Of a DNA stretch of 64,000 nt, positions 3,001 through 12,000 are shown piece after piece. The stretch lies in NCBI RefSeq assembly GCF_024223415.1, contig NZ_CP100500.1; one strand, 5' to 3'. This DNA is from Escherichia coli. Lineage in GTDB: Bacteria; Pseudomonadota; Gammaproteobacteria; Enterobacterales; Enterobacteriaceae. Position 1 is the stretch's first letter. Each line of letters starts with the position of its first letter. The position numbers are program-made.

Positions 3001-6000
3001 TATCCACCAGAAAAAAGAACATTTGCTCTGGCATTATGGTCTATGACCGTGATTATCGCTCCGATATGTGGGCCGATATTAGGCGGTTATATTTGTGATA
3101 ACTTTAGCTGGGGTTGGATATTTTTAATCAATGTCCCTATGGGGATTATCGTCCTGACATTATGCTTAACCTTACTTAAAGGAAGAGAAACTGAGACTTC
3201 ACCGGTCAAAATGAATCTACCAGGACTGACCCTGTTAGTGCTCGGTGTTGGTGGCTTGCAAATTATGCTTGATAAAGGGCGCGATCTGGATTGGTTCAAC
3301 TCGAGTACAATAATAATATTAACAGTAGTATCAGTTATTTCTCTGATCTCTTTAGTCATTTGGGAGTCGACCTCAGAGAACCCGATTCTTGATCTCAGTT
3401 TGTTTAAGTCCCGTAACTTCACCATTGGTATTGTGAGTATCACATGCGCGTATTTATTTTACTCTGGAGCGATAGTCCTTATGCCGCAGTTACTCCAGGA
3501 AACAATGGGGTATAATGCGATTTGGGCTGGGCTTGCTTATGCGCCCATCGGCATCATGCCGCTATTAATATCACCTTTGATAGGACGTTATGGCAACAAA
3601 ATTGATATGCGGTTGTTGGTGACATTTAGTTTTTTAATGTATGCGGTTTGCTATTACTGGCGTTCTGTGACATTTATGCCAACGATTGATTTTACAGGCA
3701 TCATTTTGCCACAGTTTTTTCAGGGATTCGCCGTCGCCTGTTTCTTTTTACCCTTAACAACGATTTCGTTTTCAGGTTTGCCAGATAATAAATTTGCCAA
3801 TGCCTCGAGTATGAGTAATTTTTTTCGTACCTTGTCAGGATCAGTTGGTACGTCGTTGACAATGACGCTGTGGGGACGCCGAGAATCATTACACCATAGT
3901 CAGTTGACAGCAACCATCGATCAATTTAACCCCGTGTTTAATTCATCGTCACAAATTATGGATAAATACTATGGTTCGCTTTCAGGGGTTCTTAATGAAA
4001 TTAATAATGAAATAACTCAGCAGTCACTTTCAATTTCTGCAAATGAGATTTTCCGTATGGCGGCTATTGCTTTTATCTTACTTACGGTATTGGTTTGGTT
4101 TGCGAAACCGCCGTTTACAGCGAAAGGTGTTGGGTGATGGTAAAAAGAGAGAGCTATAGCAGGTAAGACGGTAGAATCTTAAGCCTGCGCCATCGGCAGC
4201 ATCGCTCACCCAGGGAAAGGATGGCGATGCTGCATTGAAAATTAATTAGCGGCCTTTTGCCAGATATTGCTCCATCTCTTCTTCCGGCACCATTCCACCT
4301 CCCGTCGCCCACACCAGATGAGTGGCATTACGCAGTTGTTCTGCGCTGAAACCGTGCATCTGTTGGTAACTTACTGATGCGCACACGCGCTGAGGCCCGG
4401 CCATACCCGCCAGTGCCGAAGGTTCAAGACGAATACCTTCTTCCTGCGTCAGCCAGCCAAGCATGTCATACATGGTTGGATCGCTAAGGGTATAGAAGCC
4501 ATCCAGCAGACGCTCCATTGCCCGCCCGACAAAGCCTGATGCGCGACCAACAGCAAGGCCATCCGCTGCGGTAAGGTTGTCGATACCAATATCCTGAACA
4601 GAGATCTGATCGTGTAATCCTGTATGGACGCCTAACAGCATACAAGGGGAGTGCGTTGGTTCGGCAAAAAAACAGTGAACATGATCGCCAAACGCCAGTT
4701 TAAGTCCGAATGCGACGCCACCAGGACCACCGCCAACACCACACGGCAGATAGACAAACAGAGGGTTATCAGCATCGACGATACGACCTTGCTCGGCAAA
4801 TTGCGCTTTAAGACGCTGGCCAGCGACGGAATACCCAAGGAACAACGTGCGGGAATTTTCGTCATCAATAAAGAAACAGTTCGGGTCAGACTGCGCTGCT
4901 TTACGTCCTTCCTCGACGGCAACACCATAATCTTGCTCATATTCCACGACCGTAACGCCATGGCTGCGCAGTTTCGCTTTTTTCCATGCCCGGGCATCAG
5001 CAGACATATGCACTGTCACCTTAAAGCCAATGCGGGCGCTCATAATGCCGATTGATAACCCCAGATTTCCGGTTGAGCCCACAGCAATGCTGTATTGGCT
5101 AAAGAACTGTTTAAACTCCGGAGAAAGCAGTTTGCTGTAGTCATCATCAAGCGTCAGCAACCCCGCTTCCAGAGCCAGTTTTTCTGCGTGTGCCAGGACT
5201 TCATAAATCCCGCCGCGTGCTTTTATGGAGCCGGAAATGGGCAAATGGCTATCTTTTTTCAGTAACAGTTGCCCGCTGATCGGTTGTTGATATTCCTTTT
5301 CCAGCCGTTTTTGCATAGCCGGAATGGCAACCAGTTCTGATTCAATAATCCCCCCAGTGGCAGCAGTTTCAGGAAATGCTTTTGCCAGATAGGGTGCAAA
5401 ACGGGATAAGCGCGCATGGGCGTCCTGAACATCCTGTTCGGTCAGGCCAACATAAGGTAAACCTTCAGCCAATGAGGTCGTGCCAGGATTAAACCAGGTG
5501 GTTTCTTTAAGAGCAACCAGATCCTTTACCAACGGATACTGGGCGATGAGCGAGTTCATTTTAGCGTTTTCCATAGTACGTCTCTTTGCGCTTAGATGAT
5601 AAATGACAGCAGGAATGTGCCCGCCAGAGCGACGACTGAAGCGATAAATGTCGCTGTCGTATAGTATTTAAATGTTTCATTGAGCGTAGCGCCGCAATAT
5701 TGCTTCACCAGCCAGAAAAGCGAGTCCGTAACGATCGTGCAGCCAATCGCGCCTGAACCGATAGCAATCGTAATAATTTCCGGGCTGATGTCGGGATACA
5801 GCGGCAGCACAATGATCCATATTTATATTTTCTTCTCCAGGTTGGCGATGCCAGTTGGCATGTTTTACTTACTTGCCTATATGGTTACTCGTTGGCGAGA
5901 ACAGAGGCGGAATTGGGGACAATTGTCCGGGAATTATTGTTATTTTTTATTGTATTGCCGTGTCAGGTGATAGGGCGTTGGATCTCGCCAGTGACGTCTG

Positions 6001-9000: not shown

Positions 9001-12000
9001 CAGTGCCGATCTTTTTTTAGAGACGACAGACTTGCCCTGCTGGCGACATGGCGAATGGTTACATCTCTGTTCAATTGCGTTGTCTGCCGAGCCTTCGCGT
9101 ACCAGCGCATTTACTGCGATGACGGCGATCCGGCATGCCGGAGGTTTTGTCAGCTTCGATCCCAATATTCGTGAAGATCTATGGCAAGACGAGCATTTGC
9201 TCCGCTTGTGTTTGCGGCAGGCGCTACAACTGGCGGATGTCGTCAAGCTCTCGGAAGAAGAATGGCGACTTATCAGTGGAAAAACACAGAACGATCGGGA
9301 TATATGCGCCCTGGCAAAAGAGTATGAGATCGCCATGCTGTTGGTGACTAAAGGTGCAGAAGGGGTGGTGGTCTGTTATCGAGGACAAGTTCACCATTTT
9401 GCTGGAATGTCTGTGAATTGTGTTGATAGCACGGGGGCGGGAGATGCGTTCGTTGCCGGGTTACTCACAGGTCTGTCCTCTACGGGATTATCTACAGATG
9501 AGAGAGAAATGCGACGAATTATCGATCTCGCTCAACGTTGCGGAGCGCTTGCAGTAACAGCGAAAGGGGCAATGACAGCGCTGCCATGTCGACAAGAACT
9601 GGAATAGTGAGAAGTAAACGGCGAAGTCGCTCTTATCTCTAAATAGGACGTGAATTTTTTAACGACAGGCAGGTAATTATGGCACTGAATATTCCATTCA
9701 GAAATGCGTACTATCGTTTTGCATCCAGTTACTCATTTCTCTTTTTTATTTCCTGGTCGCTGTGGTGGTCGTTATACGCTATTTGGCTGAAAGGACATCT
9801 AGGGTTGACAGGGACGGAATTAGGTACACTTTATTCGGTCAACCAGTTTACCAGCATTCTATTTATGATGTTCTACGGCATCGTTCAGGATAAACTCGGT
9901 CTGAAGAAACCGCTCATCTGGTGTATGAGTTTCATCCTGGTCTTGACCGGACCGTTTATGATTTACGTTTATGAACCGTTACTGCAAAGCAATTTTTCTG
10001 TAGGTCTAATTCTGGGGGCGCTCTTTTTTGGCCTGGGGTATCTGGCGGGATGCGGTTTGCTTGACAGCTTCACCGAAAAAATGGCGCGAAATTTTCATTT
10101 CGAATATGGAACAGCGCGCGCCTGGGGATCTTTTGGCTATGCTATTGGCGCGTTCTTTGCCGGCATATTTTTTAGTATCAGTCCCCATATCAACTTCTGG
10201 TTGGTCTCGCTATTTGGCGCTGTATTTATGATGATCAACATGTGTTTTAAAGATAAGGATCACCAGTGCGTAGCGGCGGATGCGGGAGGGGTAAAAAAAG
10301 AGGATTTTATCGCAGTTTTCAAGGATCGAAACTTCTGGGTTTTCGTCATATTTATTGTTGGGACGTGGTCTTTCTATAACATTTTTGATCAACAACTTTT
10401 TCCTGTTTTTTATGCAGGTTTATTCGAATCACACGATGTAGGAACGCGCCTGTATGGTTATCTCAACTCATTCCAGGTGGTACTCGAAGCGCTGTGCATG
10501 GCGATTATTCCTTTCTTTGTGAATCGGATAGGGCCAAAAAATGCATTACTTATCGGTGTTGTGATTATGGCGTTGCGTATCCTTTCCTGCGCGCTGTTCG
10601 TTAACCCCTGGATTATTTCATTAGTGAAGCTGTTACATGCCATTGAGGTTCCACTTTGTGTCATATCCGTCTTCAAATACAGCGTGGCAAACTTTGATAA
10701 GCGCCTGTCGTCGACGATCTTTCTGATTGGTTTTCAAATTGCCAGTTCGCTTGGGATTGTGCTGCTTTCAACGCCGACTGGGATACTCTTTGACCACGCA
10801 GGCTACCAGACAGTTTTCTTCGCAATTTCGGGTATTGTCTGCCTGATGTTGCTATTTGGCATTTTCTTCCTGAGTAAAAAACGCGAGCAAATAGTTATGG
10901 AAACGCCTGTACCTTCAGCAATATAGACGTAAACTTTTTCCGGTCGTTGTCGATATCTCCATATCCTTCAATCGGAAAATAATAATACTAAAATGCTTAG
11001 CCCTGCTAATAATCACCTATGTTCTGGTACAGTCGCTCAAATGTACTCCGGATACACGGTTCGCTGATTTCCAGGACATTGTCGTCATTCAGCGACCTGT
11101 CCCGTGTATCACGGGCCTGCAAATTCATCAAGGAATGCATTGCGGAGTGAAGTATCGAGTCACGCCGTATTTCGCTATCAGGATTCTGTGTGATGGTTAC
11201 ATCGCCCGGCCCAGGGCTGTTTAGTCATCAGCGCTTTCTGACAGTGCTGAGATTTCAACCTGTTGCAGTAAAAATGAGTAGATATAGGGCAAGTGTGCTG
11301 CCAAACCCATCTTTTATGGGGTGAAGGTAGATTTCGTTTGAAGGGTATCTGGTGTCCCCTGCAGGAATCGAACCTGCAATTAGCCCTTAGGAGGGGCTCG
11401 TTATATCCATTTAACTAAGAGGACAATGCGGCATGAGTATACCCGCTAATGGACTGCGGGGTAAGTACGCTGCCGCTCGATTGCTTAAACCCTCGCCATT
11501 TATGCCGGGTTTTTATCATTTTTCTTAATGTTTTCCGCACGTTCTGCTTTTTGGCGTGCTTCTGCTTTGCGCTTGTTGCTCATGTCGTTACGGATCTGTG
11601 CATGACTCATTAACGCGAAGATAAAGGTGCCGCCGCAGATGTTCCCCGCTAAAGTAGGTAGTGCGAAGGGCCAGATGAAATCGCTCCAGTGCAGCGTACC
11701 GTTAAACACCAGATAGAGGATTTCTACAGAACCGACAACGATGTGAGTGGTGTCACCCAGGGCAATAAGCCAGGTCATCAATATAATCACCACAATCTTT
11801 GCCGCACCCGCTGCAGGAAACATCCATACCATAGTGGCGATCAGCCAGCCGGAAATGATCGCGTTGGCAAACATCTCGCTGGGGGTGTTCTTCATCACAT
11901 CCATGCCGATTTTGACAAATGCATCGCGAGTTTCTTCATTGAAGATTGGCATATATTCAAATGCCCACGCCGCAATACCTGTCCCGAGAATATTACCCAG

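Follow-up and report, generated by a model that had tools for sequence, protein, structure and literature searches.

A sucrose-catabolism gene cluster (cscRAKB) beside argW, in place of dsdC and the 5' part of dsdX, in Escherichia coli

Results

Genes between dsdX and argW

The stretch of E. coli chromosome analysed here (64 kb, referred to as the window) carries four genes of sucrose catabolism, cscR, cscA, cscK and cscB, which lie between a remnant of dsdX and the tRNA gene argW. The gene content, intactness, boundaries and regulatory motifs of the locus are demonstrated in the following, together with its frequency in the population. The genes and their flanks are:

4246-5574, minus strand: dsdA, intact D-serine ammonia-lyase, 442 aa (TIGR02035, 810 bits vs cut-off 368)
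5592-5810, minus strand: dsdX remnant, C-terminal 72 codons (residues 374-445), matching only positions 374-445 of the 445 in the DsdX model NF007395
5809/5810: left junction, 5809 being the last base homologous to K-12 dsdX and 5810 the first island base (blastn, and junction sequences compared by eye)
5811-6040, plus strand: island DNA 5' of cscR, without K-12 homology, presumed cscR promoter and leader
6041-7036, plus strand: cscR, LacI-family repressor of the csc regulon, 331 aa (family-level LacI/CytR/RbsR matches from residue 1; RefSeq identity)
7044-8477, minus strand: cscA, GH32 invertase (sucrose hydrolase), 477 aa (TIGR01322, 474.6 bits vs cut-off 356.4)
8693-9607, plus strand: cscK, PfkB-family fructokinase, 304 aa (NF006957 fructokinase equivalog, 505.7 bits vs cut-off 450)
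9679-10926, plus strand: cscB, LacY-type sucrose:H+ symporter, 415 aa (TIGR00882, 594 bits vs cut-off 220)
10927-11349, minus strand: spacer of 423 bp between cscB and argW, a decayed DUF4942-family gene fragment
11350: right boundary, the argW 3' end, where K-12 homology restarts (blastn)
11350-11424, minus strand: argW, tRNA-Arg(CCU) (ARAGORN, Rfam tRNA)

A first-pass annotation of this DNA had recognised the signatures of a LacI-type repressor, a GH32 invertase, a PfkB fructokinase and a LacY-like symporter. All four genes proved to be intact, with the order, orientation and location that it had claimed, and the positions given for the 72-codon dsdX ORF and for argW on either side were exact or only a few bases off. 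The range assigned to the island, 5592-11424, marks a real locus but also takes in the dsdX remnant and argW; the island proper extends from 5810 to 11349. The reading frame listed for cscR, from a TTG start (5855-7036, 393 aa), is over-extended and was replaced by the 331-aa form with an ATG at 6041, in which the HTH domain aligns from residue 1.

Similarity to CscR, CscA, CscK and CscB had been set beforehand as the test of the assignment. Identical proteins stand in RefSeq as CscR (WP_001301925.1, "sucrose operon repressor CscR" in recent annotation) and CscB (WP_001197012.1, "cscB sucrose MFS transporter"), and the family assignments of CscA, CscK and CscB, like those of DsdA and the DsdX fragment, exceed curated NCBIfam cut-offs. 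CscR lies above no NCBIfam equivalog cut-off (best 137 bits vs 436), so that its name is owed to identity with the annotated CscR and to published genetics rather than to a model; its 90% cluster includes the "Sucrose operon repressor" of E. coli W.

The GH32 motifs of CscA are WMNDPNG at residue 36, RDP at 160 and ECP at 215. An AGGA is found 8 nt ahead of the ATG at 8477, and translation from another ATG in the same frame, at 8486, would yield a protein of 480 aa. PGAP labels CscA "sucrose-6-phosphate hydrolase", which is an scrB-type name. CscK has the signature DSTGAGD at residue 245; it was called "aminoimidazole riboside kinase" in older PGAP runs and cscK fructokinase in a newer one. 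Residue 353 of CscB is the wild-type Q, the position at which Q353H has been published as an up-transport mutation (PMC6599523). All four Csc proteins occur verbatim in public collections, CscR, CscK and CscB each on at least 1000 contigs, and the CscA allele is rarer than the other three (7 contigs), differing by 7-9 residues from CscA of two other csc-positive strains, at no position within the GH32 motifs.

The divergent control region

In published accounts, cscA and cscKB form divergent operons whose control region carries operators for CscR and two sites for cAMP-CRP (PMC3938415; PMC11251922). The same layout is putatively present here, with divergent units, two palindromic operators and CRP-like sites between them:

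8478-8692, no strand: divergent cscA / cscKB control region (sequence and literature)
8512-8523, no strand: putative CscR operator 1, 12-bp palindrome GTTAACGTTAAC (repeat search)
8557-8572, no strand: predicted CRP-like site TGCGATGAATATCACA, 1 mismatch to TGTGA-N6-TCACA (pattern search)
8576-8587, no strand: putative CscR operator 2, 12-bp palindrome GTTAACGTTAAC, 64 bp from operator 1 (repeat search)
8598-8613, no strand: possible weaker CRP-like site TGTGATCGAATATGCA, a weak match with 3 mismatches to TGTGA-N6-TCACA

The palindrome occurs exactly twice in the 64-kb window (pattern search), both times in this region, in agreement with the "two copies of a 12 bp inverted repeat" described for the csc control region (PMC11251922). 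Operator and promoter assignments were taken from secondary accounts (PMC11251922, PMC3938415). A consensus promoter scan of 5500-11500 gave one promoter-like site, in the spacer (11009 to 10982, minus strand), and nothing resembling a sigma-70 site in the control region between cscA and cscK. Terminator-like matches in the same scan fell mostly within genes, and the scan was therefore set aside.

Boundaries and comparison with K-12

When the window was compared by blastn with the corresponding locus of K-12 MG1655, homology extended over 775-5809 and 11350-14465, and the 5.5-kb segment 5810-11349 between them was without a match. The flanks are collinear, with 98% identity on the evgAS-emrKY-dsdA side and 95% on the argW-yfdC-mlaA side. 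At the corresponding place, K-12 has argW followed by the cryptic prophage CPS-53, pawZ, dsdC, full-length dsdX and dsdA (K-12 locus map), in contrast to the window, where csc is found instead, CPS-53 is absent and argW is free of prophage. The csc genes were not found at the K-12 locus, neither in the locus map nor by blastn, which bears out the earlier view that the present locus is not K-12-like; in K-12, csc had to be put in by integration (PMC6599523).

The replacement of dsdC and of the 5' part of dsdX, as originally proposed, is equally evident. No DsdC homologue was detected in the entire 64-kb window (tblastn, E <= 1e-3), and the 5' 1119 nt of dsdX are lost. What remains of dsdX shows 97.2% identity to K-12 DsdX, confined to residues 374-445 (tblastn), and is flagged as a pseudogene by RefSeq in near-identical genomes. 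The adjacent dsdA differs from its K-12 counterpart at 19 nt; dN/dS is 0.14 against K-12 and 0.07 against O157:H7 (a comparison of two csc-positive strains), values which rest on only 16-19 differences.

Compared with most strains, the spacer between cscB and argW lacks 18 bp (alignment). The 60-aa O157:H7 version of its ORF matches Pfam DUF4942 at positions 14-62 of 190 (E=3e-6), and the 44-aa ORF of the window (11006-11140) gave no NCBIfam match. The spacer is present once in each of 2631 genomes, close to the csc count, and never on plasmids: the DUF4942 fragment travels with csc.

Distribution and closest known systems

With carriers defined as genomes in which at least 80% of window 5500-11500 is present, the csc cluster is found in 2645 of 5426 complete E. 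coli genomes (49%). The same dsdX junction occurs in 2522 of these genomes (~95% of carriers). In 1470, csc lies directly against argW as in the window; the remainder have insertions there, such as the prophage of O157:H7. Over the 6-kb query (5500-11500), nucleotide identity with most carriers is ~99%; strains SCU-316 and KV7 match it at 100%, and SCU-316 is 99.9% identical across the window.

The closest described systems are the csc regulons of EC3132, W (ATCC 9637) and O157:H7 EDL933, which have the identical gene set, order and orientation. There, too, the control region is divergent and holds CRP sites and two palindromic operators of 12 bp, and the cluster sits between argW and a shortened dsdX, in a locus that has lost dsdC and kept dsdA (PMC3032704, PMC11251922, PMC7486766). 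The initial expectation that sucrose-positive non-K-12 strains carry csc at the argW/dsd locus thus agrees with these descriptions, and its appraisal as accessory but described, not novel, fits both the published arrangement and the presence of the cluster in roughly half of complete E. coli genomes. Differences from the three strains are of allelic detail only, namely the uncommon CscA variant and the DUF4942 remnant with its 18-bp deletion. In O157:H7 strain OK1, CscR is identical and CscB differs by one residue; O157:H7 has a prophage between island and argW, and the same is reported for W (PMC3032704), whereas the window has none. Primers designed for csc of W (PMC3938415) have matches in the window at the gene ends where they would be expected, and the relation to W rests on these matches and on the literature.

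More distant are the homologous csc genes of Citrobacter freundii (Cf_csc), compared by published description, which retain the operator and CRP elements but have cscA and cscR each inverted, in DNA too diverged for detection by blastn (PMC11251922). The scr regulon (scrKYABR) of enteric plasmids and Klebsiella also serves sucrose catabolism and likewise combines a LacI-type repressor with a GH32 hydrolase and a fructokinase; however, it has a PTS EIIBC and a porin and splits sucrose-6-phosphate, whereas the window has a LacY-type symporter and neither scrA nor scrY.

Beyond the first-pass annotation, the present analysis adds the exact boundaries, the DUF4942 remnant, the lack of a prophage at argW and the frequency of about half of the genomes.

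Discussion

Identity and mobility of the segment

We are highly confident that 5810-11349 represents the chromosomal csc regulon of E. coli, a system for non-PTS sucrose catabolism, in its usual place, and nothing in the sequence is at odds with this reading. The alternative that the genes form part of a PTS-type scr regulon or a raf (raffinose) operon deserves hardly any credence. A LacI-type repressor and a GH32 hydrolase are common to both of these systems, a LacY-like permease occurs in raf and a fructokinase in scr, and the PGAP name for CscA is of the scrB type. Yet the cluster neither contains nor adjoins a gene for a PTS EIIBC (scrA), a porin (scrY) or an alpha-galactosidase (rafA), its transporter is a LacY-type MFS protein identical to annotated CscB, and its gene order, its place at argW/dsdX and its operators agree with published csc. 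Genes for ScrA and ScrY were found neither in 5500-11500 nor, over the length of the window, in the annotation of a collinear genome. Gene content rules out both readings, scr and raf.

It is also very unlikely that the segment represents an integrative element which targets tRNA genes, encodes the machinery for its own integration and is, or was until recently, active. Such an element would account for a position next to the 3' end of a tRNA gene, a known integration site (CPS-53 in K-12, a prophage in O157:H7), and for the remnant of a DUF4942 gene, a family typical of integrative elements. However, 5810-11349 contains no integrase or recombinase gene, its far end interrupts a gene, dsdX, at a junction that recurs unchanged in 2522 genomes, and its GC content (48%) compares with 50% for the window. 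The argW 3'-end sequence occurs only once in the window, not as a direct repeat, and no repeats flank the island; without an att-type second copy or flanking repeats, the integrative-element reading was rejected. The csc segment is not an autonomous mobile element, because it has neither an integrase nor flanking repeats. It took the place of a stretch that starts just 3' of argW and includes dsdC and the first 373 codons of dsdX. As ~95% of carriers have identical junctions, a single replacement is favoured, and the data point to one ancient event followed by spread through descent and homologous recombination.

Predicted function

The mechanism follows what has been published on EC3132 and W, transferred to the near-identical sequence found here. 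CscB would bring in unphosphorylated sucrose by proton symport, CscA would split it into glucose and fructose, and CscK would phosphorylate the fructose. Bound to its two putative operators, CscR would keep both units repressed until sucrose is high, and cAMP-CRP would also be required for expression. We infer that csc is expressed in this strain, and the predicted phenotype is sucrose-positive, with growth that is slow or restricted to high sucrose, and with D-serine use lost.

A possibility that we take seriously, while thinking it improbable, is that csc is present but silent, and that the strain would appear sucrose-negative in ordinary tests on account of CscR repression, poor uptake through wild-type CscB or the uncommon CscA allele. 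Strains with csc have been found to be slow on sucrose or to need >1% sucrose, and faster growth takes loss of cscR or cscB mutations such as Q353H (PMC11251922, PMC6599523, PMC3938415); the window has an intact cscR and CscB with Q353, and its CscA carries 7-9 substitutions relative to two other carriers. On the other hand, all four ORFs are full length with intact catalytic motifs, CscR and CscB are identical to O157:H7 or Tig207 alleles, and the CscA substitutions spare the GH32 motifs.

Since dsdC and the first 373 codons of dsdX were replaced, dsdA is left without its activator and its dedicated transporter. The orphan gene could stay functional in csc lineages and be reached by same-strand transcription that starts at the cscA promoter, under CscR control, and continues through the convergent cscR and the dsdX stub; sucrose induction or loss of cscR would then be coupled to D-serine detoxification. 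We offer this as a speculative and rather unlikely scenario. It is in line with the intact state of dsdA and its dN/dS of 0.07 and 0.14, with the minus-strand orientation of cscA, the dsdX stub and dsdA, and with the observation in EHEC that deletions taking out cscR turn dsdA on from cscAp (PMC7486766).

The locus, its regulation, its chromosomal position and the trade-off with D-serine use have all been published, so the csc locus carries little weight as a discovery and is useful as annotation. It marks the source of the window as a non-K-12 E. coli, near-identical at this locus to SCU-316 and KV7, which are commensal or animal isolates, and the genome count provides a current figure for the frequency of the csc arrangement in the species.

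Gene content and boundaries of the csc island

The first-pass annotation had placed a sucrose-use cluster (cscR-cscA-cscK-cscB) beside argW, replacing dsdC and the 5' part of dsdX. Its observation is confirmed, as open reading frames, the tRNA call and NCBIfam matches all put four csc genes between a dsdX remnant and argW. The layout of the locus, taken from the ORF listing and ARAGORN, is as follows.

Genes at the csc locus (window coordinates, strand, product)
2599-4137, +, emrY, 512 aa
4246-5574, -, dsdA, 442 aa
5592-5810, -, dsdX remnant ORF, 72 codons
6041-7036, +, cscR, LacI-type ORF with its true ATG at 6041, 331 aa
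7044-8477, -, cscA, GH32 ORF, 477 aa
8693-9607, +, cscK, PfkB kinase, 304 aa
9679-10926, +, cscB, MFS transporter, 415 aa
11350-11424, -, argW, tRNA-Arg(CCU)
11500-12432, -, yfdC
12726-13481, +, mlaA

When the locus was aligned by blastn to that of K-12 MG1655, homology covered window 775-5809 (98.0%), stopped there, and resumed at 11350 to run to 14465 (95.4%), while the intervening segment 5810-11349 had no match, so that K-12 indeed lacks csc at this locus. Reading of the junction sequences places the left break within dsdX, past the residue-374 codon, and the right break at the exact 3' end of argW. Against the 445-position NCBIfam DsdX model, the remnant ORF aligns only to the final 72 positions, 374-445, and no DsdC homologue exists anywhere in the 64-kb window, where DsdX is represented by this tail only; the claimed loss of dsdC and 5' dsdX thus holds as well. 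The K-12 locus differs in reading argW, CPS-53 prophage, pawZ (a 15-nt repeat of the argW 3' end), dsdC, dsdX and dsdA. The argW 3' end is not duplicated in the window, no repeats flank the island, and the island segment has no integrase gene. The GC content of the island is 48%, compared to 50% for the window, the low part being cscB (44%).

Some further features of the window were noted. A low-GC trough (32-37%) at 1000-1750 is evgA-emrK intergenic DNA, as placed via the collinear annotation of strain SCU-316. A variant of yfdF (13663-14943, - strand) forms an uninterrupted ORF of 426 aa where the GC content is low (30-34%), with an N-terminal part (130 residues) 92% identical and a C-terminal part (282 residues) 74% identical to K-12 YfdF (352 aa), and an internal duplication in which a block of about 60 residues is present twice. 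It has no NCBIfam family match, and in the near-identical strain SCU-316 this DNA is annotated by RefSeq as two frameshifted pseudogene pieces. Between cvpA and dedD (47036-47395, + strand), a 91-bp unit of REP/BIME type occurs 4 times in tandem (97% matches), and 3 of the copies score above gathering for Rfam naRNA4 (RF02564).

Identity of the csc genes and their control region

In the NCBIfam scan, CscK passed the fructokinase equivalog (505.7 bits, cut-off 450), CscA the scrB/GH32 subfamily (474.6, cut-off 356.4) and CscB the oligosaccharide MFS subfamily (594, cut-off 220); CscR aligned end-to-end to LacI-family models, at scores below every equivalog cut-off. The repressor and the transporter of the window have the RefSeq accessions WP_001301925.1 and WP_001197012.1. 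A newer annotation of another strain calls the first “sucrose operon repressor CscR” and the second “cscB sucrose MFS transporter”, and there the two flank cscA (“sucrose hydrolase”) and cscK (“fructokinase”). Primers designed for the csc genes of E. coli W (PMC3938415) fit the window, with 0-2 mismatches, where the ends of the genes are expected. These names and primer matches, together with the published arrangement, support the csc interpretation of the first-pass annotation.

CscK carries the catalytic signature DSTGAGD. For CscA, the introduction of PMC11251922 gives a sucrose phosphorylase producing glucose-1-phosphate; contrary to that label, the GH32 motifs WMNDPNG, RDP and ECP and the model matches support its reading as a hydrolase, which fits an invertase.

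The 215-bp cscA-cscK spacer contains the perfect palindrome GTTAACGTTAAC twice, 64 bp apart (8512-8523 and 8576-8587), and these are its only occurrences in 64 kb, where any given 12-mer would be expected about 0.008 times by chance. Two putative CRP-like sites are present, one with a single mismatch (8557-8572) and a weaker one (8598-8613). Palindromes and CRP-like sites agree with published accounts in which cscA and cscKB are divergent operons with two CscR operators, each a 12-bp inverted repeat, and two sites for cAMP-CRP (PMC11251922; PMC3938415). A simple scan found no sigma-70 site in this control region, which is not surprising for promoters of the activator-dependent kind.

The cscB-argW spacer

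The cscB-argW spacer (10927-11349, 423 bp) is a single-copy chromosomal stretch that 2631 of 5426 complete genomes contain, a set that is essentially that of the csc carriers. In O157:H7, a prophage lies between this spacer and argW, a partial copy of the argW 3' end following the spacer there; relative to the phage attachment site, the spacer is thus part of the csc side. A small ORF within it is annotated in RefSeq as a DUF4942 protein, and the 60-aa O157:H7 version matches positions 14-62 of 190 of Pfam DUF4942 (E=3e-6). An 18-bp deletion leaves a 44-aa ORF in the window, for which no family match was found. Identity to most carriers falls from about 99% in the csc genes to only 92-94% in the window spacer, which is matched at ≥99% by just 5 genomes. 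Such a local excess of divergence fits a DUF4942 gene fragment in decay, and the spacer is best read as a decayed fragment of this kind with no evident role. It contains the sole sigma-70 consensus-like site in 5500-11500 (10982-11009, - strand; TTAGCA, 16 nt, TATTAT), probably a chance match, antisense toward the cscB 3' end.

Distribution and origin

The csc island has been described before and is very widespread: 2645 of 5426 complete genomes contain 80% or more of window 5500-11500. Strains SCU-316 and KV7 are 100% identical to this 6-kb query, and a long list of other strains has an identity of about 99%; SCU-316 is collinear with the whole 64-kb window (99.9%). All four Csc proteins are found verbatim in a public protein collection, the exact sequences of CscR, CscK and CscB on at least 1000 contigs each and the uncommon CscA allele on 7. 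O157:H7 strain OK1 has an identical CscR and a CscB with one different residue. CscA shows 7-9 residue differences to O157:H7 OK1 and Tig207 (N48D, K236N, E253G, L415P, G419R and E420D being common to both comparisons), with CscR identical in all three.

A 141-bp probe across the dsdX/csc junction is fully matched in 2522 of the 5426 genomes; in non-carriers only its dsdX half is matched. This one junction is common to about 95% of carriers, which points to replacement of dsd DNA by csc in a single ancestral event, and the phylogroup distribution of csc (near-universal in B1, D and E, rare or absent in A, B2 and F; PMC11251922) agrees with such a replacement. A second probe, spanning the spacer/argW junction, is fully matched in 1470 genomes, the remaining carriers matching the spacer and a partial tRNA repeat only, meaning that something has integrated at argW.

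Implications for sucrose and D-serine use

Gene content and sequence features were observed here, while the functions follow published work on near-identical loci. Sucrose would be taken up by CscB via proton symport and split by CscA into glucose and fructose, with CscK producing fructose-6-phosphate; CscR would repress the cscA and cscKB units until sucrose is high (above about 1% in strain W), and cAMP-CRP would be required (PMC11251922; PMC3938415). Growth at low sucrose becomes faster when cscR is lost or when CscB is altered, for example by Q353H (PMC6599523; PMC3938415). As cscR is intact in the window and CscB residue 353 is the wild-type Q, our expectation is that the strain would grow slowly on sucrose or only at high sucrose.

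The orphan dsdA is full length and passes the NCBIfam D-serine ammonia-lyase equivalog. It has 13 synonymous and 6 non-synonymous changes relative to K-12 (dN/dS 0.14) and 13 and 3 relative to O157:H7 (0.07), the flanking core genes having values of 0.00-0.05; though the counts are small, these changes do not look like neutral decay. One could imagine that dsdA is transcribed from the CscR-controlled cscA promoter across cscR and the dsdX stub, as cscA, stub and dsdA share a strand and deletions removing cscR switch dsdA on from cscAp (PMC7486766). Read-through from cscA to dsdA in the wild-type arrangement is unlikely to be of importance. With dsdC lost and dsdX truncated, and unless a second dsdCXA copy such as that reported for K1 strains lies elsewhere in the genome, D-serine is predicted to be unusable by, and toxic to, this csc-positive strain, as reported for EHEC and W (PMC3032704; PMC7486766).
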